64,000 bases of DNA from an uncultured delta proteobacterium (GTDB lineage Bacteria; Desulfobacterota; Desulfobacteria; Desulfobacterales; SG8-13): positions 744,001-808,000 of the forward strand of contig CAWKCK010000003.1 in assembly GCA_963848135.1 (NCBI GenBank). The letters run 5' to 3'. The translations under genes and the position numbers were made by a program. The notes beneath the pieces were generated by a model. It saw only the letters and a list, made by a program, of their open reading frames with translations, was not told where the DNA came from and made no database searches. Of this stretch, positions 4,159-40,032 are shown piece after piece (the stretch's first letter is position 1; each line of letters starts with the position of its first letter).

Positions 4159-4794
4159 ATGAATAAAATATACGCCGTCGGCGATATTCACGGATGCTAC
4201 GACAAACTCATGGATTTGATGGACAAAATCGACATTGACTTCGAATCCGACACGCTTGTATTCCTTGGTGATTACATCGATCGGGGGCCACAATCTTTTG
4301 AGGTCGTCGAGTATCTTGCCGATCTGAAATTGAAACATACCAATACGGTCTTTCTGAAGGGCAATCATGAAGAAATGCTGGAGAAATACCTCTCGGGCGA
4401 TGACCGGCTCACCTATCTGGTCAACGGCGGACAGCAAACACTGGAAAGTTACATGAACCGCCCCCGGGAAGAGGGTGAGCCCCCGATTCCCCGTAAGCAT
4501 CTCGATTTTTACAGCAGCCTCAGGATTTTCTACGAAACAGAAAATTACATCTTTGTACATGCAGGATTGAAAAATAAAGTGCCAATCGAGAGTCAGAAAA
4601 CCGAGGATCTCCTTTGGATTCGGAAGCGTTTCATTCAATCCAAATATGATTTCGGCAAGATGGTTGTGTTCGGTCACACCCCGCTGCACGAACCGTTGCT
4701 CTTACCAAATAAAATAGGTATTGATACGGGTGCCGTATACGGTAACAAGCTCACATGCATTCGGTTGCCGGAACTGGTATTTTACACAATTTAA
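4159..4794 (+). CDS. Metallophosphoesterase (PPP-type Ser/Thr protein phosphatase family)
   Basis: GDIHG, GDYIDRG, GNHE, VHAG, FGHTP and IDTGA motifs. Confidence 0.93.
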   Translation: MNKIYAVGDIHGCYDKLMDLMDKIDIDFESDTLVFLGDYIDRGPQSFEVVEYLADLKLKHTNTVFLKGNHEEMLEKYLSGDDRLTYLVNGGQQTLESYMNRPREEGEPPIPRKHLDFYSSLRIFYETENYIFVHAGLKNKVPIESQKTEDLLWIRKRFIQSKYDFGKMVVFGHTPLHEPLLLPNKIGIDTGAVYGNKLTCIRLPELVFYTI

Positions 4795-8570: not shown

Positions 8571-10019
8571 TCAACCTTTCCGGTCGCAGGGCAACTGGAC
8601 AATGACCCGAGCCCCTCCTTCAGGAGTATTTTCAATCCGAATATCGCCGCCATGAGCGTCGATAATGTTTTTTACAATTCCCAGCCCCAACCCGGTTCCC
8701 TTATCCTTGGTGGTAAAATAGGGGTCCCATATTTTTTCAAGCAATTTTTCCGGGATACCAGCACCTTGGTCGGTAAAGCTGATTTGCACGGCCCCGTCGA
8801 CGGGTTGAACCCGGATTGAAATTTCCCCTCCGTCGGGCATGGCCTGCAAGGCATTGATGAAGATATTTAAAAATGCCTGATAGAGCATGTCCACGTCCGC
8901 CTTGACTTCCGCCAGATCGCTGTCGATTGAAATATGGACATCGTGCCCCTTGTTCTTCATCTGGGGCGCCAGATAGGTTATATTTTTTTCAAGGATGTCC
9001 TCTACGCGATAGGGTGCCAGGCGGGGAGATCGGGGCCTGGCATAATTTAAAAAGTCGGTGATGATATTGTTCAGACGGGTGGATTCTTCGACGATAATGT
9101 CGGGTATCGCGTTGCTCGGTTCCAGCTTTGCCATTTTTTTCTTTAACAGCTCGGCTGAACTGAAAATAATGCCTAAAGGATTCCTGATTTCATGGGAAAT
9201 AACGGCCGCCATTTCCCCAAGAGAAGAAAGATGGGCCGCCCGATTGAGCTGCTCTTTCAGACGCAGTCTTTCCTGGGCCCGGTTTTCGATGATACCCTCA
9301 CCCCTTTTCACAACAAAAATGAGAATCAGAAAGAGCGTCAGCATCATCAGGGCGCTGGTCGTCACGACATAAACCTGGTACTTGAAAATCGATTTGTACT
9401 CGGCAGACAGATCCTGCACGATTTCAATCACGCCCAAAACCGGTCCCGATATTCGCGAAGGGAGCTGCTCCGCGCGTAACGGCGCAAAGGTGATAAAACG
9501 ACTTTCCTTCGGAATTCCCAACAGAATTTCCCAAAAGTTTCCCCGTTGAGACTGCCGTGACAAGGTCTGGCCATTTATTGCCGCCTGGTAACTGTTGCCG
9601 CCCATATTCATTTTACCGATCAGGTCGCGGTCAAAACTGTATGAGATCACATTGTTCATGTCGTAGATATTGACCATTTCCACCTTGAAACTGTGAAGCG
9701 TATTACGAACGACCTTATCCATGAGCTCATATTGCTCATCATTTCGGAGTTGTATCTTGCCGAAACGCAACACCACTGGCATTACAAATTGCAAAAATAT
9801 TTGATGGTTGAGATTTTCGATGATCACAAACGCATATTCTTCACTTTTCTCCTGCTGCATTGCGCGGGCCCAGTGAATATTTAACATCGAAAGAACTAAA
9901 GTCCCTAAAAATATAAGGCTCAAACTGGTAACGGCAAAATATTTAACCAGTCGAAACGGTTTGATTCTCTCCTCAACCGATTGAGCATCAACAGTCAATG
10001 TTTGCACACCTTTCGTCAT
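8571..10019 (-). CDS. Sensor histidine kinase
   Basis: Two TM helices flank a periplasmic domain; H-box SHEIRNPL, N-box, DQGAGI, FTTK, GTGLGL. Confidence 0.95.
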   Translation of the reverse strand: MTKGVQTLTVDAQSVEERIKPFRLVKYFAVTSLSLIFLGTLVLSMLNIHWARAMQQEKSEEYAFVIIENLNHQIFLQFVMPVVLRFGKIQLRNDEQYELMDKVVRNTLHSFKVEMVNIYDMNNVISYSFDRDLIGKMNMGGNSYQAAINGQTLSRQSQRGNFWEILLGIPKESRFITFAPLRAEQLPSRISGPVLGVIEIVQDLSAEYKSIFKYQVYVVTTSALMMLTLFLILIFVVKRGEGIIENRAQERLRLKEQLNRAAHLSSLGEMAAVISHEIRNPLGIIFSSAELLKKKMAKLEPSNAIPDIIVEESTRLNNIITDFLNYARPRSPRLAPYRVEDILEKNITYLAPQMKNKGHDVHISIDSDLAEVKADVDMLYQAFLNIFINALQAMPDGGEISIRVQPVDGAVQISFTDQGAGIPEKLLEKIWDPYFTTKDKGTGLGLGIVKNIIDAHGGDIRIENTPEGGARVIVQLPCDRKG

Positions 10020-27943: not shown

Positions 27944-30181
27944 TTATACCGGCAGCTCGATCACAAATTTCGCCCCGGTCGGCTGATTGTTTTGGACGCT
28001 GATCACCCCATTGTGGTCGCCGACGATCGTACTGACAATCGTGAGACCCAGGCCCATTCCGGCCTTTTTCGTTGAAAAGTTGGGTTCGAACAGGCGGGTC
28101 TTGTCGGCATCCGAAACACCGGGCCCGTTGTCGGCGACTTCGATCCGAACCCGATTTAATATTGGATCGTATGACAAGGTGATCGTAATTTCACCTTTAC
28201 CCTTTATGGCCGCAATTGCATTTTCCAGCAGGTTAATCATGGCCTGCTTGATTTGTTTGCGATCAAGGTTCATCATCGGAACCCTATCGGCCAGTTGTGT
28301 CTGAAAAACGATTTCAGTATAGCCTTCCATGTAGAGCGCTACGGTTTCCTCGATTATTGGCAGCAGTTCGCAAGGCTTAAGATCGACGCTCGGGAATTTG
28401 GCGAAGGCTGAGAACTCGTTGACCAAATTACGAATAAGCTCAACGTGATCGATGATCATTCGGATGCATTCATCGAAAACGGGATCCTCGTGGTCCTTTG
28501 CAAATTTTCGTTTCAATCGTTGGGCGGAAAGCGTAATCGGTGTGAGGGGGTTTTTGACTTCGTGTGCAATTCTGCGTGCCACCTCCCGCCATGCGACCAT
28601 CCGCTGGGCTCTTTCCATCTCTGTCAGGTCATCGAATACCATCACAATGCCCATGTGATTGCCAGTATCATCCCTGAGCGCATTGACATGGGTCATAAAA
28701 CTGCGTGGCCGGCCCTCGATGATCAGCCGTAACGGCAATTGGAAAGCATCGTTCTTCGAGAGCGTGAGGCTGTCCATAATTTCGTTGGCCAACCATCGAA
28801 ATTGGCCGTCCAACAGGTGTTCATAACCGCGATTGAGTACCGCGTCGGTTTTAATTCCGAGCATTCTTTCAGCGGACCGATTGATCGTCTTGATGATTCC
28901 GTCAGCATCAAGTGTAATGACACCAGCGGAGACGTTTTTAAGGACGACTTCCATATATTGCCGTTTTTCTTCGATTTCTGCATTTTGTTGCTGAAGTTTG
29001 GCGGCTGAGAGCTCGAGCTGCTCACGGCTGACACGCAAATCCCGAGTCATCTTGTTAAATGAATCGACCAGACTGCCGATTTCGTCGTCGGCAACGCGTT
29101 CAATAGTAAAACTCAATTCACCCTCGGCCACACGCCGGGTTCCCTCGGCCAATTCTTTGATGGGTATGCTCATTGAACGGGCGAGATAAAAACCTAACCA
29201 GATGGCACAGAACAGAACCAACAAGGCTACGATCGACAAAACGATGTAGTACGTATTTTGGATCGGTTTTTTCAGTAACTTGATTTGCTGGTACTCTTCA
29301 AAACCTCTTGTTATGGATTTCATGCTCTGGGAGATGTCCGGTACCAGAAGGATCGAAATGATAAGGTAACCTTCTATCTGATCGTGGTCGGCTCCGAAGG
29401 GAATCGTTCCCACCGTCCGAATCAACTCTCCTTTAGTGACGTACTCTGAATGCGTCCAAACATTTTTAGGAATCGCATTTTCAAGAAGTACGTGGGAAGG
29501 GACGATTCCAAAAACTGTACTTCCAAGATCTTCGGAAAGGGAAAAGGTCAACCGATTGGCATTAATATCGTAAACTTCGATTGCAGCAATATTGAATTCA
29601 CGCTGAACAACGCGTATATAGCGCGAGAGTGCAGTGGAATTATTAGGATTTAGGAATTCCTTTTTAACGATCTGGTAGGATGCTCTTTCGAGGAAGAACT
29701 GGCTGTTGGTCTCAACCTGCTGATAAACGCTTCGCCCCACGACGAGTGAATTCTCAAGCGCCTGTTCTACCGGAACGTTAAACCAGAAGTCGAGACTGGT
29801 GGTGATAAAGTTTATGGAGAAAAAAAACAAGACAATCGTCGGCAGAAGGGTAAGCGCAATGAATGCTACCGTGAGGCGCGTTCGAAGCTTGGCACCCATA
29901 ACTTTGCGCTTACGTTCGTAAAGCAGTTTAACCAGGTTGCGAAAAACCAGAAAAATCAGCAAGATCAACAGCAGCAAATTGATATTGATGAGGATAAACA
30001 TCAAAATGGTGTTGGAGACAGGGATGTCTGTACCGAAATTAATTACCCGAAATTCTGCAAGGGTCAGAAACGCGACAATGACAAATATGACGACAATGAG
30101 AATGACCTCGCGCTTGCGCCTTTTTTTGTCGGCCTGTTTCGGCGTTAGAGATATGTTCCTGTTTGCCTTGGTCTCATTCAT
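27944..30181 (-). CDS. ntrY: NtrY-like HAMP/PAS sensor histidine kinase
   Basis: GAKLRTRL, HAMP and PAS domains, AWREVARRIAHEVKNPLTPITLSAQRL, GMGLGL. Confidence 0.9.
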   Translation of the reverse strand: MNETKANRNISLTPKQADKKRRKREVILIVVIFVIVAFLTLAEFRVINFGTDIPVSNTILMFILININLLLLILLIFLVFRNLVKLLYERKRKVMGAKLRTRLTVAFIALTLLPTIVLFFFSINFITTSLDFWFNVPVEQALENSLVVGRSVYQQVETNSQFFLERASYQIVKKEFLNPNNSTALSRYIRVVQREFNIAAIEVYDINANRLTFSLSEDLGSTVFGIVPSHVLLENAIPKNVWTHSEYVTKGELIRTVGTIPFGADHDQIEGYLIISILLVPDISQSMKSITRGFEEYQQIKLLKKPIQNTYYIVLSIVALLVLFCAIWLGFYLARSMSIPIKELAEGTRRVAEGELSFTIERVADDEIGSLVDSFNKMTRDLRVSREQLELSAAKLQQQNAEIEEKRQYMEVVLKNVSAGVITLDADGIIKTINRSAERMLGIKTDAVLNRGYEHLLDGQFRWLANEIMDSLTLSKNDAFQLPLRLIIEGRPRSFMTHVNALRDDTGNHMGIVMVFDDLTEMERAQRMVAWREVARRIAHEVKNPLTPITLSAQRLKRKFAKDHEDPVFDECIRMIIDHVELIRNLVNEFSAFAKFPSVDLKPCELLPIIEETVALYMEGYTEIVFQTQLADRVPMMNLDRKQIKQAMINLLENAIAAIKGKGEITITLSYDPILNRVRIEVADNGPGVSDADKTRLFEPNFSTKKAGMGLGLTIVSTIVGDHNGVISVQNNQPTGAKFVIELPV

Positions 30182-30300
30182 GTGAAAAAGGGAAAAAGAA
30201 AGGTGACGCCGCTATTCCTTCACTAACGGCACAATGCCGCTGGTTTTACCCATGGCAATTTGTGGCGATTTGGCGGCGGCATAGCGGGCGGAATCCGTGG

Positions 30301-30873
30301 CTAATATATGAAATCGATTGTATACCAATCCGTTTCGACGTCCCATAAGGAAAAGAGTATATAGTGTAGATATAGTGGCAGGGTTAGCTTACTGACCTCA
30401 GCCTTTGCCCGGATTTGGTACTGGCGGCCCTTTTCCAGTTCCTTCAGTGGATACACTGGCAGGGCATCGATTTCGGTCATCCATTTTTGAGCTTGTGAGA
30501 AAGAACGGGTAACCATCGGCTCTCCTTCTCTCCACGAACGTTTGATCGTAAAGTCTTTCTTTAGATTGTCATATTTGATGGTGTGTGAGAGGGTGATATC
30601 GGTAATTTTTCTGTCGACCCACCAGTTGCGGATTTGGTAAAGGTTGATATAAAATGTGAATGTTGCCGGAACACCGCTGATGATGGCTTCCTTGAGTTTT
30701 TCTGTAAAGCTTCCCTCAAGATTGAAACTGAGCAGGAGATCGTAACGCGTATTACTGACGGTAATGTGGGTCAACACCGCGTCCTGGGCCAGCAACGGGT
30801 TGCTACCACACAATAGCGTGATAAATAGCCCTAAACAGACGACGCTTGTTTTCACGGGGTTTACCGAAGCCAT
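30301..30873 (-). CDS. DUF4390-family periplasmic protein
   Basis: Signal peptide, EAIISGVP, R.WW.D, IKYDNL, LPLYLHY...WDVETDW; typical position upstream of ntrY. Confidence 0.8.
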   Translation of the reverse strand: MASVNPVKTSVVCLGLFITLLCGSNPLLAQDAVLTHITVSNTRYDLLLSFNLEGSFTEKLKEAIISGVPATFTFYINLYQIRNWWVDRKITDITLSHTIKYDNLKKDFTIKRSWREGEPMVTRSFSQAQKWMTEIDALPVYPLKELEKGRQYQIRAKAEVSKLTLPLYLHYILFSLWDVETDWYTIDFIY

Positions 30874-31114
30874 GCGGTCAAATACGCCCCTCTTGGTTCT
30901 TTGACAAAAAGCATCTAATCGCAATGAGTGTCTGCAAAACAAGAGATATAAGCTATAAAGCAGACGGTATCCATGCACGATTCGGTGAAATGATTTGTAA
31001 TATACCGTGCATATGCTTGTGCAGCAGTTATTCAATGCCTTTTTGGACCGAATGATCCAATGGCGCATTTTAAGCGCAATCGGATGGGTCTTCAAAACAT
31101 ACACGAAAACCTTA

Positions 31115-32020
31115 TTAAATGGCAACAGATTTTGGCTGTGAAGCCGGAGGTGACGATGAACCGGGGACCCAGCGGGTTTCCCAGGACTCCTTCTGGGAGA
31201 AGAATTTTTCGAGGAAGGCGTGATTGAATGCATGCCCGGATTTGACGACATCCAAATGACCGAGAATCGGCATTCCCAGTAGGGAAAAATCACCGAGACA
31301 ATCTAGAACTTTGTGGCGGACAAACTCATCGGGGAACCTGAGACCGTCAGAATTGATGATATGTTCTTTGTCGATGACCACTGCGTTGTCTAATGATCCG
31401 CCCAAAGCCAATCCATAGCGTTTCATATATTCGACTTCGTCTAAGAAACCGAAAGTTCGCGCCCGGCAGATTTGGGTGGAAAAAGCTTCGTCTGTGATCT
31501 CTATGGAGAGGGTCTGTTTACCGATCAACGGGTGTGCGAAATCTATGGTGCACGTGATTTGGAAACGGTCAGAGGGATATGCCGTGACGGATTTGTCACC
31601 ATCGATCAGTTCGATGGGTTTTTTGAGTGTAAAAAAATGTCGTGGCACCCCCTGTTCCTCTATACCGGATTTCGTGATCAATTCAGTGAAATGACCAGCA
31701 CTGCCATCCATTACAGGCACTTCATAGGCATCGAGTTCAATCAATGCGTTGTCGATTGAAAGACCCGCGAATGTGGCCATCAAGTGTTCGATCGTGGATA
31801 CGATACATCCATCACTGCCAATGACCGTAGCCAGGCTGGTATCCACCACACGGTTAAACTGGGCGGTCACGCCAGGCGCGCCCGGCAAATCCACTCGAAC
31901 GAATCGGATTCCTTGATTGATGGGCGCTGGCTTGATTGTTAAATGGACAGGTTTTCCAGAGTGCAATCCGATGCCTTCGCACCGGACTGTCTTCATCAAA
32001 GTCCGTTGACATAAATGCAT
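31115..32020 (-). CDS. lpxC: UDP-3-O-acyl-N-acetylglucosamine deacetylase
   Basis: QRTL...GIGLHSG, STIEHLM, EVPVMDGSA, ARTFGF, GGSLDNAVV, EFVRHKVLD, SGH. Confidence 0.97.
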   Translation of the reverse strand: MHLCQRTLMKTVRCEGIGLHSGKPVHLTIKPAPINQGIRFVRVDLPGAPGVTAQFNRVVDTSLATVIGSDGCIVSTIEHLMATFAGLSIDNALIELDAYEVPVMDGSAGHFTELITKSGIEEQGVPRHFFTLKKPIELIDGDKSVTAYPSDRFQITCTIDFAHPLIGKQTLSIEITDEAFSTQICRARTFGFLDEVEYMKRYGLALGGSLDNAVVIDKEHIINSDGLRFPDEFVRHKVLDCLGDFSLLGMPILGHLDVVKSGHAFNHAFLEKFFSQKESWETRWVPGSSSPPASQPKSVAI

Positions 32021-32316
32021 GTTAATAACGTCCTTCCATTGGCCGTCCGTCGGATAGTCAACTCAGACGTAATATATTTCTCACATACGGGAGAAAAATA
32101 CAATCAAAAAAGCGACAATATTAACCCGTTTCATGTTCCCGTGCAGCTGTCGGGTTACCTGTCGCCGGATGTCAGCGGCAGCGGGGGTGAAAAAATCGGC
32201 CGGTTTTTGGGTCTGATTATCCCTATTCGCGAGATGTATCTAACTAGGTCTTATCGTAAGGAACTTCAAGGGCATGTCAAGGCATGCGGTGCGATCGGGT
32301 CGAGGAGTGAGGCAGA

Positions 32317-32418
32317 TTTATACCGTTTTTCAAAAATATAATCCGCGATACGGAAAGGTGGTATACGTGGTTGATGAAAAAACGGTCGTATAACGGAACA
32401 TTTTTTCATCAACCACTA
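32317..32418 (+). repeat. Dispersed two-hairpin repeat (copy A)
   Basis: TATACC...GGAAAGGTGGTATA followed by a perfect 16-bp inverted repeat, GTGGTTGATGAAAAAA-N18-TTTTTTCATCAACCAC (32367-32416). Confidence 0.85.
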
Positions 32419-32461
32419 ACATCTGCCGATCGTGAAATATTTTCAGTTAGGAACGAATTGA

Positions 32462-32541
32462 CGTGTTTAGCCTTATCTGATAGGGGTTCACAAAAATGAG
32501 TCGGCTCCATCCGTAACGGGGACACCAGAAGACCACGGATG
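32462..32541 (+). promoter_or_regulatory. Structured leader, possibly a degenerate or minimal cobalamin riboswitch
   Basis: Ordered words AGGG, TTCA-CAAAAA-TGAG, CGG-CTCCAT-CCG-TAA-CGGGGA and CCAGAAGACC resemble the Cbl riboswitch core without the P6 extension. An alternative stem CATCCGT/ACGGATG is possible. Confidence 0.3.
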
Positions 32542-32565
32542 CGGATCAATCGGATATCCAATGGC

Positions 32566-32608
32566 AAAAGGGTTCCACTGACCATGATTGCGGTTAACGG
32601 AACCTTTT
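32566..32608 (+). terminator. Attenuator-like hairpin in the leader of the dehydrogenase gene
   Basis: AAAAGGGTTCC...TGACC-N8-GGTTA...GGAACCTTTT followed by a T-rich tract, about 105 nt upstream of the start codon. Confidence 0.55.
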
Positions 32609-32713
32609 ATCGTTTGTTTCAGGCTGAATGTTTTTCACCGTTGCCTCTTTTCAATTCGAACTTTATTGCCAATCATCGCGACGATGCGTCTGGCTGGAGG
32701 TGTGAAATTAAAT

Positions 32714-33682
32714 ATGAAATGCATTATGGTAACCGAAGTCGGTGGTTTCGAGGTAAAAGAACTTCCGGTTAAAGAACCACGGGTGAATGAGGTCCTTGTG
32801 CAGGTCGAAGTCACCGGAATGTGTCGCACTGACCTCAAGATCATTCGATCGGGACACCGGGATCTGGTGCTGCCGCGCATTCCGGGTGAGGAGGTTGTCG
32901 GGATTGTCCAGCGAAAAGGGGAACGGGTTACTAATGTCGCAGAGGGTGATCGCGTCTACGTCTACCCCGGAATCTGGTGCGGAAAGTGTCCGGCATGCGC
33001 CGCGGGGGCCGAGAATCTATGCCGGGATATGAAGATTATGGGATTTCACCGTGATGGAGGATTTGCTGACTTTGTGACGGCGCCTGCACAAAGCGTCATC
33101 AAGGTATCGCAGGGCCTGTCACCGGAACACGCCGTGTTTGCTGAACCATTGTCATGCTGTTTAAATGCTCTGGAACTGGCTCAAGTCGCTGGTGGTCAAC
33201 ATGTTGGAATATGGGGGAGTGGTCCGGCCGGTACCCTTCTCTCAAGAGCTTCCCGGGCCTTGGGGGCAAAGCCGACGTGCATCGAAACCGACGAACGCCG
33301 TCGGCACCTGATCAATGGATACGCCACTTGCCCTGAGGATCTGCGGTTCGATGTCTGTGTGGTCGCCGTGGGAAGCCTGAAGGCCTACCGTGAAGCCATA
33401 TCTCACCTGAATCCTCGGGGGCGGTTGGTGATTTTTTCCGGTCTTCCCCCCGATGACCGCGTTTTGCACCTTGATCTGAATCATATTCACTATACGGAGC
33501 AAACCGTTGTCGGTGCCTACGGTTGCAGCTTCCGCCACGGCGAGGAAGCACTCGCTCTGATTTCGAGCGGCAGGGTTGGTGTCAATGACATGATTTCTCA
33601 TCGCTTGCCACTTACCGATCTCGACCGGGCACTGGATCTTGTCGCCTCAAGACAGGGAATGAAAATATTACTCTACCCATAG
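32714..33682 (+). CDS. Zn-dependent medium-chain dehydrogenase (polyol/threonine dehydrogenase-like) with a GEE variant motif
   Basis: CRTD, PGEEV in place of GHE, structural Zn CGKCPAC..C, AEP, GSGPAG; GGAGG upstream of ATG 32714. Confidence 0.9.
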   Translation: MKCIMVTEVGGFEVKELPVKEPRVNEVLVQVEVTGMCRTDLKIIRSGHRDLVLPRIPGEEVVGIVQRKGERVTNVAEGDRVYVYPGIWCGKCPACAAGAENLCRDMKIMGFHRDGGFADFVTAPAQSVIKVSQGLSPEHAVFAEPLSCCLNALELAQVAGGQHVGIWGSGPAGTLLSRASRALGAKPTCIETDERRRHLINGYATCPEDLRFDVCVVAVGSLKAYREAISHLNPRGRLVIFSGLPPDDRVLHLDLNHIHYTEQTVVGAYGCSFRHGEEALALISSGRVGVNDMISHRLPLTDLDRALDLVASRQGMKILLYP

Positions 33683-33698
33683 TAGCGGAGATTATACC

Positions 33699-34841
33699 AT
33701 GTGGACAGATGAATCCTTAAAATCGTTTGGATGGAATATCCAGAAATTGATTGATAAAAAAGATTTATCGCGGGAGCAGAGCCAGGAAATGTTCCGCGAA
33801 GTTCTGCTCAACCAGCAACCGGAACTGCAGCAGGGTGCATTTCTGGCGGCCCTGACGGCCAAAGGGGAAACGCCCGCTGAAATTGCCGGTGCCTGGCAGG
33901 CTATCCTTGATCTTGACACCGAGACGGTCACTGAGGATTTAGGGAAACCATTGGTTGAAAATTCGGGTACCGGCATGGATCAGCTGAAAACATTCAATGT
34001 CAGTTCGGCGGCCGCGATTGTTGCCGCGGCCGCCGGAATCCGTATGGCGCGCCATGGGGCGAGAGCGCTAACGTCAAGCTGCGGCACCGTTGATCTGCTC
34101 GAAGCGATTGGTATCAACGTGGAATGCGACATCGAAACCGTGGGGCGCAGCATCAAGGCCGCCGGTATTGGGTTGTTCAACGGCATGAGCGCTATGGTTC
34201 ATCCCCGGTCACTGGCCCGGATTCTCAGTCAAATCCGGTTTGGATCCACCCTGAATGTTGCCGCTTCCCTGGCAAGTCCTTGCCAGACCACCCATGCGCT
34301 GCGCGGTGTTTATTCCGTTGAAATGGTACCGAAAGTGGCAGAAATTATGAAAGCCATCGGCATCGAGCAGGCAATGGTTGTACACGGATTTGACGCTGAA
34401 AATGACAAAGGTATGGACGAGTTGTCCAACATTGGTGAAAGCATTGTGCTGGAGGTCCGTGCGGACGGGAGTGACATATCGCACACGATCGCTCCCGAAG
34501 ACGTCGGTTTGAAGCGCTCTAAATATGGGGACATTGCCGCCACCGGCGATGTGCGTAAGGAGGCCGTCCGTTTCCTCAAAGTTATCGGTGGGGTAGGCCA
34601 CGATGGGTGCATAGATATTACCTGTCTCAACGCCGGGGCGATTCTCTATCTGGTGGGCAAGGCCGAGGATATTACCACAGGTGTCGCCATGAGCAGAGAA
34701 ATTATCGGCAGTGGCCGGGCTTTGCAAAAATTGACCGAATGGGTAGATGTCCAGTCGGATCGGGAAAAAAGCGGTATGTGCACATTGTTGACGGTGGCTG
34801 AGATTTCTGGGGTGAAGGAGATGATGCGACCTTATCTATAG
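33699..34841 (+). CDS. Anthranilate phosphoribosyltransferase-like protein (divergent TrpD paralog)
   Basis: TrpD fold motifs (GAFLAAL..KGET..EIAG, GTGxD..TFNVS, VVHG, GMDE, LNAGA) with altered substrate motifs; no other trp genes nearby. Confidence 0.85.
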   Translation: MWTDESLKSFGWNIQKLIDKKDLSREQSQEMFREVLLNQQPELQQGAFLAALTAKGETPAEIAGAWQAILDLDTETVTEDLGKPLVENSGTGMDQLKTFNVSSAAAIVAAAAGIRMARHGARALTSSCGTVDLLEAIGINVECDIETVGRSIKAAGIGLFNGMSAMVHPRSLARILSQIRFGSTLNVAASLASPCQTTHALRGVYSVEMVPKVAEIMKAIGIEQAMVVHGFDAENDKGMDELSNIGESIVLEVRADGSDISHTIAPEDVGLKRSKYGDIAATGDVRKEAVRFLKVIGGVGHDGCIDITCLNAGAILYLVGKAEDITTGVAMSREIIGSGRALQKLTEWVDVQSDREKSGMCTLLTVAEISGVKEMMRPYL

Positions 34842-34851
34842 GCAACGGCAA

Positions 34852-34947
34852 TTTTACCCTTTTCAAAATATTATTATTGAAATACGAAAGAGCGGTATGA
34901 GTGGCTGTAAAATGAACGTTCGAATAATGGAACGTTTTTACGACCAC
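34852..34947 (+). repeat. Dispersed two-hairpin repeat (copy B)
   Basis: TTTACC.TTTTCAAAATA...GAAATACGAAAGAGCGGTATGA GTGGCTGTAAAA..AACGTTCGAATAATGGAACGTTTTTACGACCAC aligns with copies A and C. Confidence 0.75.
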
Positions 34948-35050
34948 CGCTATTAGCGGGGGAAATTGGCATTTTCTGTGTGCCATTCAATCAAAAAATT
35001 TCAACAGCCTGTTAAATCTTGGTATCGAATTCCTATCCGTTGGAGGCACC

Positions 35051-36586
35051 GTGCTGGCCAAAATTCTTAGTAGCGCCGTGATCGGTATCGACGGCTTTTT
35101 GGTCGAAGTCGAAGTGGACATTGCCCGTGGTTTGCCCACGTTTACCATTGTCGGACTGCCGGAAGCATCGGTAAAGGAAAGTAAGGAACGGGTAAAGGCG
35201 GCCATAAACAATTCCGGCTACGATTTTCCCGACGATCGCATCACCGTAAATTTGGCACCCGCAAATATTAAAAAAGAGGGCACCGGTTTTGATCTGCCAA
35301 TCGCTCTCGGAATACTTACCGCTATTGGTGTTGTGCCCAAAGAATCACTAACCAAGCATTGTGTGCTGGGCGAACTCTCCCTTGACGGGCGAATCAAACC
35401 GGTCAAAGGATCACTGCCAATGGCAATGGCGGCAAAGGGAGCCGGGTATACCGGTATCGTCGTGCCGCTTGGAAACGGGCGTGAGGCATCGGTCGTCAGC
35501 GGAATTGATGCCATTCCGGTAAGAACGCTCGCGGAACTGGTAGAATACTTACGCGGTGCTGTCCGTATCGCACCACTCAAGGCCAATCTTGACGAGCTCT
35601 TTAACCGCGATCGGGTATCGGATTTAGATTTCAGTGAAGTCATGGGGCAGGCGCATGTTAAGCGTGCTCTGGAGATCGCTGCCGCAGGCGGGCACAATTT
35701 GTTGATGATCGGTCCGCCCGGCTCCGGCAAAACAATGCTCGCGAAACGAATAGCGACCATTCTGCCGCCACTCACCTTCGAGGAGGCCATCGAAACCACC
35801 AAGATTTTCAGTGTCGTGGGCCTGCTGGCGCACAACCAGACCCTGATCACTCAGCGCCCTTTCCGCTCGCCCCATCACACGATTTCAGATGCAGGATTGA
35901 TCGGCGGTGGCCATATACCGAGACCGGGAGAGGTGAGTCTGGCGCACAACGGCGTTCTGTTTCTGGACGAGCTGCCTGAATTCAAAAAGCATGTGCTGGA
36001 GGTTTTGCGTCAGCCACTTGAGGATTTGAGAGTCACTATTTCCCGTGCGGCTCTAACGATCACCTATCCCTCACGATTGATGCTGGTTGCTGCCATGAAT
36101 CCCTGTCCATGCGGATATTTGACCGATACAAAGCACCAGTGTCGTTGCACCTATCAGCAGATTCATCGTTACCGTTCCAAGATATCAGGTCCCCTTCTCG
36201 ACCGTATCGATCTTCATGTGGAGGTTCCAGCTGTACCTTACAAAGATCTGGCAGCGCAAACCAGTGCTGAATCTTCGGCCGATATCAGGACCCGCGTCAA
36301 CGCGGCTCGGGCCATACAGTCCCATCGGTTCCAACGGTCTAAAATATATGCCAACGCTCAGATGGGAAGCCGCCAGTTGAAGCGGTTTTGCGGTGTTGAC
36401 GACAATTCGCGACGATTACTGGAAACCGTCATCGACAAGCTAGGCTTGTCTGCGAGAGCGTACAACCGGATTTTAAAAATTGCCCGTACCATCGCCGATC
36501 TTGCCGGAGTTGAAGCCATTTCCTCGGAACATGTTTCAGAAGCGGTTCAGTACCGCAGCTTAGACCGAAAACGGGTTCCGGCCTGA
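35051..36586 (+). CDS. comM: ComM / YifB-family Mg-chelatase-like AAA+ ATPase
   Basis: [73 protein letters not shown]. Confidence 0.95.
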
Positions 36587-36660
36587 CGATCGGGCTGCCG
36601 AAGGGCGCGGTTGCGAATACCATATACGAATAGTTACGCTTACGGGGGGTATACAGCCGT

Positions 36661-38724
36661 TTACGTCAACTGTTTCAAGTCGGAGCTGCGGATGTGAAGG
36701 TCCCGCTGCGGATATGGAATCTCGATTCCGGCCTTTCTGAGTTCATCGAAAATGGCAAAATAGAGGGCACTGCGGATTTTTCTCCGGGGCGTTTCGCGCA
36801 CGTCGATCCAGAACAGCAGCTCGAAATTTATTGAGTTGTCTGCATACTCCACAAAGCGGACTACGGGCGGCTGATGATCGGAAACCAAGGGTTCGGCCGA
36901 AGCCACATCCAGCAAGATCTTCTCCACCAGCCGCGGATCTGCATTATACGACACGCCTACCAATAGCTCGATCCGGATCATTGGTGAGGAATGAGAGTAA
37001 TTTACGATCGTATTCGAGATGAGATTCGAGTTCGGGATCAGATATTCGATATCGTCCCGGGTTCTGACCCGGGACGATGCCAGATCAATATCGGTGACGA
37101 TGCCCATGGTTTTTTCAACCTCAATCCAATCGCCCTTGCGGATACGTCCACCAAAGATGATCGTAAATCCGCTGATAATATTTGCCGCCATGTGTTGCAG
37201 ACCAAGCCCGATTCCAATACCGGCAGCACCCGCGAATACCAATAAAAATCGTAAATCGATCCCGACGGCTTTAAGCGATATCATAAAACCGATTAACAGC
37301 AGCGTATATTTCAGAGAAATGTTAACGGCGTAACCCAGACCCGGGTCGATACCGAAAGCCGGATACACCCGGTAGTCCAGATAGGCTTGAAGCAGGCGTG
37401 TTGAATATACGAAGGCCAAAAGGATCAAGATGGCTTTGATAATGATCCAGAGGGTAATGTCATTGCTGCCGAGTTTGGCAACCGGAAACGAGATGATTTG
37501 CACCAGAGGTTCGAGGAGCCCCAGCAGGTTCAAAACAATGCCGGTTGTCGCCGTTGCCGTGGCATACAGAAGAAGTGATTTGCATGATTTATAGAGCATG
37601 CGAACGGTATCGTCGTGGCGATCCTTGCCGGCATACCATTTCTCGAACCATACCCTCAGGTTGTGGTAAATCAGCATGATAAGCACATAGGCGCCAGCCG
37701 TAAACCAGGTCTTCAAGAGAACGACACGGCCGAGCTGGCGGTATCCAATGCACCAGAGAAGGGCCACCATAAAGGACAGAATAATGAAGGGGTAGTAAAA
37801 CCGGCGAAATTGGTGGACGAAAAGCCGATAGGGGCCGTAAGGAAGGTCGGGCAACAACGACATAAAGACGGATTTCATCAAATGAAGCAGAAACAGGACC
37901 ACCACGATCGATATCGAGATAACGAACTTTAGCAGCGCGACGACATCCGCACGGATGCTAAAAGCCTCCGCACTCCAGATAACGATAAATCCGGCCAGAA
38001 TGTAAAATAGGGTCAGGCGCGCAAGATTAAAAATTTTTCTTCCATAAAGGGCGGTACGCGGAAATAGATTCTGGGTTAAAGCTTCACGCAGCAGAGCGGT
38101 GATCAGCGCGCCGACGACCCAAAGACCCAACAAACGGCCTATCAGTTGAAACCAGGCGGCCGGGTAGGAAATAAAAGCATTGATCAGCGCGAATAGGCCC
38201 AGCAGCAGCAGCGGTATCAAAGCGGCTACGACAACTTTCAATAGGGACAAAATGTAGGGAAACAGTTTCGGTGGTAGTTTCCCCTCAAACGGTCGTATAA
38301 TGCTCTCGATACGCTTCAAAACCTTTTTACGTCCGATGAGGCTATAGATTACGGCGGCGATAAAGGTCAAAACGACCAAAGAGCCGACCATCCCCAGAAC
38401 CCGGCCCTGTTCCAAGATTCTGTTTACCAATTCCGGGAGCAGTAAGGGGAGTTCGAGCGTCCAATGGTATAGATCGTTAAGGGTTTTCATGTTCCAACCC
38501 AGCGGCGAGGGCTCGAACAGAGAACGGGCTCTCTTGGCGAACTCTTCGCTGACATTTTCAGCCTGTTCGATCAGGGTCGATTGCATCCCTTGGCCGATGC
38601 TGAATTCGGGCACTGACTTGTTTTTGTCGGTATCACCATTGTTTTCCGCTGCAGACAACGTTGCAACGAAGAAAACGAAAGTGAGAGCAACACATATTCT
38701 TGACAACCTGCGGCCAAATGTCAT
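36661..38724 (-). CDS. Large MscS/MscK-family mechanosensitive channel
   Basis: Signal peptide, many TM helices, GIGLGLQ...NIISG, IPNS, VGVSY, GIEIPYPQRDLH. Confidence 0.93.
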   Translation of the reverse strand: MTFGRRLSRICVALTFVFFVATLSAAENNGDTDKNKSVPEFSIGQGMQSTLIEQAENVSEEFAKRARSLFEPSPLGWNMKTLNDLYHWTLELPLLLPELVNRILEQGRVLGMVGSLVVLTFIAAVIYSLIGRKKVLKRIESIIRPFEGKLPPKLFPYILSLLKVVVAALIPLLLLGLFALINAFISYPAAWFQLIGRLLGLWVVGALITALLREALTQNLFPRTALYGRKIFNLARLTLFYILAGFIVIWSAEAFSIRADVVALLKFVISISIVVVLFLLHLMKSVFMSLLPDLPYGPYRLFVHQFRRFYYPFIILSFMVALLWCIGYRQLGRVVLLKTWFTAGAYVLIMLIYHNLRVWFEKWYAGKDRHDDTVRMLYKSCKSLLLYATATATTGIVLNLLGLLEPLVQIISFPVAKLGSNDITLWIIIKAILILLAFVYSTRLLQAYLDYRVYPAFGIDPGLGYAVNISLKYTLLLIGFMISLKAVGIDLRFLLVFAGAAGIGIGLGLQHMAANIISGFTIIFGGRIRKGDWIEVEKTMGIVTDIDLASSRVRTRDDIEYLIPNSNLISNTIVNYSHSSPMIRIELLVGVSYNADPRLVEKILLDVASAEPLVSDHQPPVVRFVEYADNSINFELLFWIDVRETPRRKIRSALYFAIFDELRKAGIEIPYPQRDLHIRSSDLKQLT

Positions 38725-38880
38725 GGTCGATCCTCATATTCTGTAATCATTTATGTGGGGCAAAAGATTGCGTCACACGTTTCGCCGGGCGTGGTGCCGA
38801 TACCTGTCATTGGAGTTCCAAAGATAGCGGGTTTGAGCGCGCGATAAAAATTGGCAGCGCGGAGAAATCATTACCGAGCG

Positions 38881-38980
38881 TTACACCGCTTTCCAATTAT
38901 AAAATCCGAAAATGGAAGGGGAGTATAAGTGGTTGTAGAAAAAAACATTCGAAAAACGGAACGATTTTTTAGAACCACTA
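38881..38980 (+). repeat. Dispersed two-hairpin repeat (copy C)
   Basis: TTACACCGCTTTCC...AATCCGAAAATGGAAGGGGAGTATAA GTGGTTGTAGAAAAAAACATTCGAAAAACGGAACGATTTTTTAGAACCACTA. Confidence 0.75.
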
Positions 38981-39036
38981 TATAATCTTTTTCGTCAAAA
39001 CATGAAAGGGCCACCTCAGCCTGAAAAAAGATTCAT

Positions 39037-40032
39037 ATGAATTTGGACCGCATACCGGAAATTGAGAAAAGTCTGTTGATCGTTCACCAGGGCGCTCTCG
39101 GCGACTTCATTGTTACATTCCCCGTATTGAATGCCCTCAGGGTGTCATTCTCCCGTATCGACGGTTTGTGCCGGTCGTCTTTTGGGCAGTTGGCTGTCGA
39201 TATGGGCGTATTGGATCGTTACCACCCGCTGGAGTCCGCTCGTGTCGCCAGTTTCTACACGGACCGAATCGATCCCGAATTGCGTCAGAGCGTATCAGCG
39301 TACAGCCACATTCTGCTGATCTCATTCTCCTCGATTTTGGAACTTTCCATGAGAAAAATCAATGCAGATCGGGTTTTCCGCATCGAGCCCTGGCCTGAGG
39401 AGATGCACGGCGAACAAGTGACTGAATTTTTAGCGAACCGGGCACAGAAGTGCGGCATCCTTTCGCATGGGGATGGTGAGAGATTCCACAATGCTTTTAA
39501 TGCTGCGGCACAAGGCCGGAAGACATCTATTTCAGCAGGGGCAATGCTAATTTTCAGCCCGGGAGCCGGCAGCATAAAAAAACGCTGGCCGCTGGAACGG
39601 TTTCTGGCCGTCTCGGCCAAGATGTTATCGGAAGGCTTGCGGTCGGTGATGCTTCTGGGGCCGGCCGAGGCGGATATCGAAGTGGCCTTGAGACAGCGGA
39701 AGGAACCTCAGCCGGCTGTCGTTAAATGTGAGTCTTTCCCGGATCTGCTTGACATTTTTGATTCTGCCGATGGATACATTGGGAATGATTCGGGTATCAG
39801 TCACCTGGCAGCATTTCTAGGATTACCGACCGTGGTTATTTTCGGGCCGTCAGATCCTGTGCGTTGGCGCCCATTTGGTGCCAATGTAAGGGTTGTCGCA
39901 CCTTCTGAAACTTGCTGTCCTTGTACGAACACCACAAGAACAAATTGCCGTGAGCTTGTATGTTTGAGACAGATAACTCCGGACAGGGTGTTGGCAGAGT
40001 GGCACCATGCCTTTGACGCGGACAGTTTATAA
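39037..40032 (+). CDS. Glycosyltransferase family 9 (heptosyltransferase-like)
   Basis: HQGALGDF, PGAGS..KRWP, IGNDSGISHLAA, FGPSDP..WRP. Confidence 0.9.
   Translation: MNLDRIPEIEKSLLIVHQGALGDFIVTFPVLNALRVSFSRIDGLCRSSFGQLAVDMGVLDRYHPLESARVASFYTDRIDPELRQSVSAYSHILLISFSSILELSMRKINADRVFRIEPWPEEMHGEQVTEFLANRAQKCGILSHGDGERFHNAFNAAAQGRKTSISAGAMLIFSPGAGSIKKRWPLERFLAVSAKMLSEGLRSVMLLGPAEADIEVALRQRKEPQPAVVKCESFPDLLDIFDSADGYIGNDSGISHLAAFLGLPTVVIFGPSDPVRWRPFGANVRVVAPSETCCPCTNTTRTNCRELVCLRQITPDRVLAEWHHAFDADSL

Follow-up and report, generated by a model that had tools for sequence, protein, structure and literature searches.

The stretch of DNA analysed here (the window, 64,000 nt in length; G000:C3:744001-808000) is taken from contig C3 (CAWKCK010000003.1) of the genome of an uncultured delta proteobacterium of the Desulfobacterales (GCA_963848135.1; G000), and positions are those of the window unless another contig or locus is named. 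Between lpxC and comM it carries a gene for a zinc-type dehydrogenase of the medium-chain dehydrogenase/reductase (MDR) superfamily and a gene for a protein resembling anthranilate phosphoribosyltransferase (TrpD), and these are preceded by a leader from which the aptamer core of a cobalamin riboswitch has been lost (Table 1). A two-gene unit with a 16-bp gap and no trp neighbours had been described at this position in an earlier note on the same DNA, and the open reading frames (ORFs) together with their Pfam and NCBIfam matches bear out that description: both genes are on the + strand with 16 bp between them, and no trp genes lie near the pair in the window. The two probably form one operon, a judgement made jointly with the functional interpretation given below. 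Both are intact. Against the closest relative, G007 (locus L029), in which the pair proteins are 91% and 88.5% identical to those of the window, the pairwise ratio of nonsynonymous to synonymous substitution rates (dN/dS) is 0.16 for the dehydrogenase and 0.11 for the TrpD-like gene, close to the values for the flanking lpxC (0.10) and comM (0.06). By this measure both genes of the pair are under purifying selection.

Table 1. Coordinates of the gene pair, its leader, the repeat copies and the flanking genes
Feature	Position	Strand	Basis or remarks
Promoter-proximal conserved leader block	32440-32515	+	Aligns with L029 8627-8702, 80% identity
5´ riboswitch remnant (31 nt), end of that leader block	~32485-32515	+	Alignment to L029
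3´ riboswitch remnant (39 nt)	32516-32554	+	L029 8819-8868 aligns at 90%, directly after 8702
Expression-platform hairpin (32567-32608), then U-rich run	32567-32619	+	Minimum free energy fold: nested stem of 10 + 5 bp; homologous hairpin in G007
MDR zinc-type dehydrogenase ORF	32714-33682	+	ATG at 32714; 322 aa; PF08240 + PF00107
TrpD-like phosphoribosyltransferase ORF	33699-34841	+	380 aa; PF02885 + PF00591
Repeat copy A, ~100 nt, resembling miniature inverted-repeat transposable (MITE) or repetitive extragenic palindromic (REP) elements	32321-32420	+	100-nt gap in alignment to L029
Repeat copy B, diverged	34855-34952	+	Same orientation as copy A
lpxC, left flank, divergent, outside the module	31115-32020	-	PF03331, 356 bits; TIGR00325, 327.8 bits
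YifB/ComM-family Mg-chelatase-like ATPase, right flank, outside the module	35051-36586	+	TIGR00368, 664.6 bits

The TrpD-like protein has the two-domain architecture of TrpD (EC 2.4.2.18), with 61.3 bits on PF02885 and 173.9 bits on PF00591, and it is matched over its full length by solved anthranilate phosphoribosyltransferase structures (e.g. 9ucw and 5noe; E 1.7e-49). On the trpD model TIGR01245 it scores 246.4 bits, above the cut-off of 199.05. The genome's canonical trpD scores 427 bits on that model and lies within a complete trpE-G-D-C-F-B-A operon on contig C1. The presence of such a gene had been proposed as a check. One part of what the earlier note had named as fatal to its proposal, that the gene of the window is the genome's only trpD, is not the case. 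The two proteins are 33-35% identical. When they are aligned, GTGMD, RHGAR and ASLASP of the TrpD-like protein correspond to GTGGD, KHGNR and GPLTNP of TrpD, and both proteins have the TFN.S block and the DE pair. The roles of GTGGD, KHGNR, GPLTNP and DE in TrpD are in the binding of phosphoribosyl pyrophosphate (PRPP), metal and anthranilate. Across 50 family members, G90, T91, G92, M93, D94, H119, R122, D240 and E241 are invariant (50/50), and at least 90% of the members have A121. The N-terminal part is in addition matched by nucleoside and AMP phosphorylases at 1e-11 to 1e-12. A search for longer proteins found no fusion of the TrpD-like protein to CobT or to the dehydrogenase; it returned a single unusual protein, of 787 aa and with a peptidase domain, and otherwise fusions of canonical TrpD. 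The likeness to TrpD thus lies in the architecture, the full-length structural match, the TFN.S block and the DE motif, whereas the protein differs in its other motifs, in overall identity, in having an MDR dehydrogenase as partner, in being absent from trp operons at all loci examined, and in the B12 riboswitch found in its relatives. Public sources label the homologs “anthranilate phosphoribosyltransferase”, and thousands of database entries of that name are probably mis-named.

The dehydrogenase consists of ADH_N and ADH_zinc_N domains (PF08240, 93.6 bits; PF00107, 33.6 bits). Its best NCBIfam match is Tdh, with 145.9 bits against a cut-off of 380, followed by a second model with 145.1 against 458; the L-threonine 3-dehydrogenase models tested were TIGR00692 and NF003808, and neither cut-off was reached. 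The nearest solved structure is 4ej6 (E 1.8e-44). With the polyol/L-threonine 3-dehydrogenase branch of the MDR enzymes (4ej6, 2dfv) it shares the GroES-like and Rossmann domains, Cys37 and the structural-zinc cysteines, of which C89, C92 and C95 are conserved in at least 90% of the members and C103 is invariant. It differs from this branch in reaching no equivalog score and in its PGEE and GHRDL motifs. The catalytic zinc triad Cys/His/Glu is incomplete: Cys37 is kept, the GHE motif of 4ej6 corresponds to PGEE, such that the catalytic His is replaced by Glu, and GHRDL is found nearby. Most bacterial members have PGEE, as does the protein of the window, and an archaeal and Dehalococcoidia clade retains GHE. 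The earlier note had reported altered active-site motifs in both enzymes, and comparison with 4ej6 and with the genome's own TrpD supports this for each.

Conservation of the cassette and its link to CobT

A search of 40 relatives of G000 found close orthologs of the pair in three other genomes of the same genus (G003, G006 and G007), in all of them at lpxC-comM, with both flanking genes in common. Where genomes of the genus lack the pair, neither it nor comM was found within 1.5 kb beside lpxC. Distant orthologs (45-52% identity) were present in four other families, and 4/4 of these have the dehydrogenase gene and cobT in the operon. At one of them, in G034, the TrpD-like gene is followed by a gene for a 723-aa fusion of dehydrogenase and CobT (ADH::CobT). 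Another distant ortholog is divergent from cobQ-cobU-cobS-cobD-cbiB.

A wider scan of one genome per species gave at least 536 relatives, of which 80 loci were kept. They come from Desulfobacterota, Thermoleophilia, Dehalococcoidia, Firmicutes, Calditrichales, Methanomassiliicoccales, Methanotrichaceae and ANME-1. In 76 of them the dehydrogenase gene immediately precedes the TrpD-like gene on the same strand, and in one (L102, a locus with a DBI_PRT fragment) it lies downstream; it was not found in the remaining three, one of which is cut by the contig end. The window matches the cassette in gene order, with its gap of 16 bp, and in the GTGMD-type signature. Bacterial cob genes of the nucleotide-loop branch occur within 10 kb of the pair in 17 of the 80 loci. 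In Methanotrichaceae loci the neighbour is instead an archaeal-type CobT, which adjoins the pair in L089 and L077 (TIGR00303; 317 and 391 bits) and, as judged by clustering, in L100 and L108. In total, with the L102 fragment counted, 22/80 loci have cobT or other nucleotide-loop genes near the pair, whether bacterial or archaeal in type. Co-occurrence of the homologs with cobT and other cob genes had been proposed as a check, and orthologous pairs directly adjoin cobT in several phyla. No trp genes were found beside the pair in the related loci with neighbours scanned. A protein collection contained six further clusters of ADH::CobT fusions (675-711 aa). Dehydrogenases of this kind beside or fused to CobT in other anaerobes had been mentioned in the earlier note, and the G034 protein and the six clusters show that such fusions exist.

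We also examined an evenly drawn sample of 301 genomes of the phylum, each at least 90% complete. The family profile gave 15 matches at E<=1e-80, 11 of them strong, and cobT was present in all ten strong carriers other than G000. It is adjacent to the pair in four of them, twice within open frames of 707 and 717 aa. On comparative sequence evidence, a corrinoid link of the cassette is well supported, because the pair adjoins CobT of two distant types, because the dehydrogenase occurs fused to CobT and because most bacterial relatives have a B12 riboswitch in front of the pair.

In G000 itself, the anaerobic cob operon is complete and lies on contig C2, together with the only cobT of the genome. 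The ThiC/BzaF family (PF01964) has no match in G000, a genome that is 98.65% complete, and none in the 19 other genomes searched from its family (0/20 in all), with or without the pair; the lineage as a whole seems to lack a thiamine pyrimidine synthase of the usual kind. BluB (TIGR02476) has no match above the cut-off in G000, the best reaching 101 bits against 150. The 11 strong carriers of the phylum sample have 0, 1, 2, 2, 1, 1, 1, 0, 2, 1 and 1 copies of the ThiC family, i.e. two copies in 3/11, to be compared with about 60 of the 301 sampled genomes (a hand count). In NCBIfam, 8/8 of the carriers' ThiC-family copies score best on ThiC models, from which BzaF is not separable.

Some relatives depart from the common pattern. 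TrpD-like copies with in-frame stops or reduced to fragments are seen in L012/L023 (G001:C27), G233, G064, G284 and G121; the G001 copy covers residues 48-232, has two TGA codons and has no dehydrogenase gene beside it. Such degraded copies suggest ongoing loss of the cassette in certain lineages. Genes for xylose-isomerase-like TIM-barrel proteins that resemble CbiR, a phosphodiesterase of cobamide remodelling, lie near cob genes or the pair at L025:2085-2882, L018:1569-2372 and L020:4540-5346, and about 2.9 kb upstream of the pair in L040. The L025 gene is the one on G000:C2, near cobT, and scores 67 bits against a cut-off of 105.

Cobalamin riboswitches and the leader of the window

Cobalamin riboswitches are common before the pair in bacteria. 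Of 19 short loci, 10 have an RF00174 match at gathering score ahead of the pair, and these ten hits were used to build a model of our own, R1, for which we asked that the riboswitch end 300-2000 nt upstream of the start of the TrpD-like gene. By this measure a riboswitch is found in 49 of the 80 loci, all of them among the 60 bacterial loci whose upstream DNA is long enough to assess, five bacterial loci being cut; it is found in none of the 15 archaeal loci. All three same-genus carriers (G007, G006 and G003) have it, at 98-109 bits. The suggestion that RF00174 be sought in the relatives was thus rewarded. Loci of the Thermoleophilia type have a second cobalamin riboswitch between the TrpD-like gene and cobU-cobT (L057, L060, L062, L065, L066, L069, L071, L075, L076, L086 and L105), and in these the cassette is therefore switched independently of the nucleotide-loop operon. 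One of them, L066, has the riboswitch and the TrpD-like gene without a recognisable dehydrogenase. In L048 (Desulfobacterales), an S-adenosylmethionine (SAM) riboswitch (RF00162, 57.5 bits; 4183-4278, - strand) stands back to back with the pair's cobalamin riboswitch.

In the leader of the window, an Rfam scan found no family at gathering score. RF00174 gave no match there even at E<=10, whether 3251 or 710 bases were searched, and R1 gave no match in the window at E<=1. The same check that succeeded in the orthologous leaders thus came out negative here. Alignment with the closest relative accounts for the difference. Relative to G007, the window has a 100-nt insertion at 32321-32420 and a 116-nt deletion. 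The riboswitch of L029 occupies 8672-8857 (186 nt), and the window is without 8703-8818, the aptamer core. Where the leaders of G007, G006 and G003 match RF00174 over its full length, that of the window has lost 116 of the 186 nt; what is left of the riboswitch is 31 nt from its 5´ end and 39 nt from its 3´ end, and the downstream hairpin is preserved. The cobalamin-riboswitch-like words that had been noticed in the leader are accordingly real, being the two ends of a riboswitch, but they do not amount to a riboswitch match, since the core between them is deleted. This loss of the riboswitch aptamer before the cassette is what is new in the window.

The deletion junction (32515/32516) is bridged without gaps by a 378-nt contig from run X3, which spans 32275-32652 with one difference, and by a 468-nt contig from run X1, of another study, which spans 32441-32903 with 13 differences. 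Because contigs from two runs of two studies cross the junction, the deleted form of the leader is not an assembly artefact, with the reservation that one of the two runs may be the source sample. The attenuator-like hairpin of the earlier note is also upheld: the nested hairpin and the U-rich run are retained as in G007, and in the predicted fold the element looks like a terminator. It was not listed by a simple terminator scan, the fold z-score of the whole leader is -0.85, and an anti-terminator duplex in which the deleted segment would pair with the 5´ arm of the hairpin is no better than shuffles (94/500 reached the score).

To judge from its sequence, the leader of the window is a non-working riboswitch of which only a deletion remnant is left. 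With the aptamer core deleted it would no longer sense B12, an effect on expression that we infer from the deletion. Close relatives with and without a B12-sensing aptamer before the same genes constitute a natural experiment. Elsewhere in G000 there are three intact cobalamin riboswitches (C1:239239-239423, C3:607747-608043 and C17:1263880-1264083), none of which precedes the main cob operon on C2.

Function of the pair

We think it likely that the two proteins are a conserved enzyme pair of cobamide metabolism, working with CobT on the branch of the lower ligand and nucleotide loop. The TrpD-derived enzyme, in which the PRPP/Mg site is kept and the acceptor site appears rebuilt, would transfer phosphoribose from PRPP to a nitrogen acceptor other than anthranilate. 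The MDR enzyme may oxidise or reduce, with NAD(P), either the resulting ribosyl or ribulosyl chain or the base itself, and the product, or a partner substrate, would then be handled by CobT. In the relatives, the operon would be repressed through the cobalamin riboswitch; in G000, with its 116-nt deletion and upstream 100-nt repeat, B12 sensing would be lost and the genes left intact. As a B12-switched cassette that is linked or fused to CobT and is found from sulfate reducers to methanogens, the pair is a concrete candidate for a missing lower-ligand step.

Several observations weigh against such a role in cobamide metabolism. The window's own instance has neither an intact riboswitch in front, the aptamer being deleted, nor cobT beside it, the gene being off-contig on C2, and no cob genes were recognised among the eight neighbour genes scanned (27944-40032). 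Eleven of the 60 assessable bacterial loci are without a riboswitch, and in the Methanomassiliicoccales loci the neighbours are unrelated to cob genes. Only 4/16 same-genus genomes carry the pair, which must therefore be dispensable there for cobamide synthesis. The presence of cobT in 11/11 strong carriers is a count of carriers alone, without the phylum base rate as a control. There is also a chemical objection. TrpD-type transfer from PRPP yields beta-N-ribosides and cobamides need an alpha-ribotide, and the TrpD-like enzyme can therefore not simply replace CobT. Finally, no complementarity of the pair with ThiC/BzaF genes was found in the phylum sample. In one carrier, G187, a lower-scoring second ThiC-family copy adjoins a separate cobT, which suggests that the pair and a ThiC-type system can coexist, each with its own CobT. 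G187 has four CobT-family genes (on C1, on C3 and two on C5), one beside the ThiC-family gene and another in the 717-aa frame beside the TrpD-like gene. This set is a hint that separate CobT paralogs may each serve a particular lower ligand.

A more specific form of the cobamide proposal is that the pair provides a ThiC/BzaF-free and oxygen-independent route to lower ligands of the benzimidazole type, a candidate for the 5-methylbenzimidazole of some sulfate reducers, with the present strain as a regulatory mutant without B12 feedback. The earlier note had already proposed an N-ribosylated aromatic amine as a benzimidazole ribotide precursor. We regard this version as tentative and rather doubtful, and the comparison with ThiC-family copy numbers in the phylum sample lent it no support. 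The TrpD-like enzyme would N-ribosylate an aromatic amine with PRPP, redox chemistry by the dehydrogenase would turn C1´ of the ribose into C2 of the imidazole, much as BluB does in its final steps but without oxygen, and a dedicated CobT, sometimes fused to the dehydrogenase, would take the base. The resemblance to BluB would be a chemical analogy only, in that the base carbon comes from a ribose-type chain; BluB has a flavin-destructase fold and depends on O2, unlike the pair. To our knowledge, several natural ligands, including 5-methylbenzimidazole, are neither products nor intermediates of the Bza pathway. Methanothrix soehngenii, too, reportedly makes a 5-methylbenzimidazolyl cobamide, which a literature search did not confirm.

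The literature offers few points of contact. Full-text searches found no description of a dehydrogenase/TrpD-like pair, and the available portions of PMC4230183, PMC8123684 and PMC12452182 contain nothing on it. A figure legend on a low-coverage region in Chlorobium lists trpD and a dehydrogenase together with cbiZ, cobN, metE and nrdD, and no function is discussed in the accompanying excerpt (PMC8620254). Within the excerpts of the cobamide literature at hand, only two routes to benzimidazole lower ligands are met, BluB and BzaF/BzaAB(CDE), and no other source of ligands of the 5-methylbenzimidazole type turned up. In its accessible part, PMC7617358 gives bzaABCDE/bzaF as the anaerobic benzimidazole route and cites Kräutler, Kohler and Stupperich 1988 on the 5´-methylbenzimidazolyl-cobamides of sulfate reducers. 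The bzaAB/bzaF-cobT-bzaCDE operons described in the same excerpt (PMC7617358) are reminiscent of the cassette in having accessory genes beside cobT, and the cobalamin riboswitch of the pair's relatives adds to the likeness; the organisation is that of an operon supplying a lower ligand. They have no sequence relation to the pair, the bza enzymes being ThiC-type radical SAM enzymes and methyltransferases, and at least one carrier of the pair, G187, seems to hold both systems.

Other functions would share part of the evidence for cobamide metabolism. The TrpD-like enzyme could supply the co-substrate of CobT by remaking nicotinate mononucleotide (NaMN) from PRPP and the nicotinate set free by CobT, or by making another ribosyl donor, with the dehydrogenase as an accessory. 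This would account for the tight linkage to both bacterial and archaeal CobT, which according to NCBIfam are both NaMN-dependent, and for the combination of kept PRPP-site residues and changed acceptor-site residues. We find it improbable, as it gives no role to a dehydrogenase that is obligatory to judge from 76/80 loci and leaves unexplained why this enzyme, and not the transferase, is fused to CobT. Salvage or remodelling, in which the TrpD-like enzyme would cleave a lower-ligand riboside or ribotide or a fragment of a foreign cobamide, such that the base is freed or exchanged at low B12, draws on the fold that the protein has in common with the nucleoside and AMP phosphorylases, and on the CbiR-like TIM-barrel genes near some loci; repression by a riboswitch fits any function at low B12. 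The best full-length match is nevertheless TrpD and not a phosphorylase, and the DE motif, which in TrpD belongs to the PRPP/Mg site, is invariant, and we give this possibility little credence.

The riboswitch is also what one would expect if the pair replaced a B12-dependent reaction, like metE or nrdD, without any role in cobamide synthesis, since cobalamin riboswitches commonly control B12-independent isozymes. Many loci, the window among them, have no nearby cob gene. A bypass of this kind is nonetheless quite improbable in our view, as the repeated adjacency to two distant types of CobT and the ADH::CobT fusions are hard to explain by it. An ordinary second anthranilate phosphoribosyltransferase for tryptophan would agree with the TIGR01245 score above the cut-off and with the public naming of the homologs. 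Against this stand the canonical trpD in a full trp operon elsewhere in the genome and the low identity to its product, the changed acceptor-side motifs, which are invariant across the family, and a context of B12 and CobT instead of trp genes, and we consider such a function very improbable.

Dispersed repeat and flanking genes

The pair was said in the earlier note to sit between two same-orientation copies of a dispersed repeat, and copies A and B are indeed found on either side of it. They are about 70% alike, and their local alignment scores 77 in the same orientation versus 31 for the reverse complement. Copy A has inverted arms of 21 nt (32367-32387 and 32396-32416) that are 90% complementary. 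In the genome, the element gives 92 matches at E<=1e-5, 77 of them at least 80 nt long, and a further copy lies in the window at 38885-38980. No counterpart of copy B was found in the downstream spacer of G007. A composite transposon formed by the two repeats was considered and rejected, as G003, G006 and G007 hold the pair at lpxC-comM without the copies. The relatives keep the pair at the same locus without repeats, and the repeats are therefore later arrivals that did not carry the unit to this place. Contigs of two sequencing runs have loose ends at 32320 and 32373, which fit other copies of the repeat.

On the left flank, the longest ORF of a DUF4390 gene (30301-31293, - strand) overlaps the lpxC ORF by about 180 nt. 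Its true start is probably further downstream, because relatives align only from about residue 130-165.

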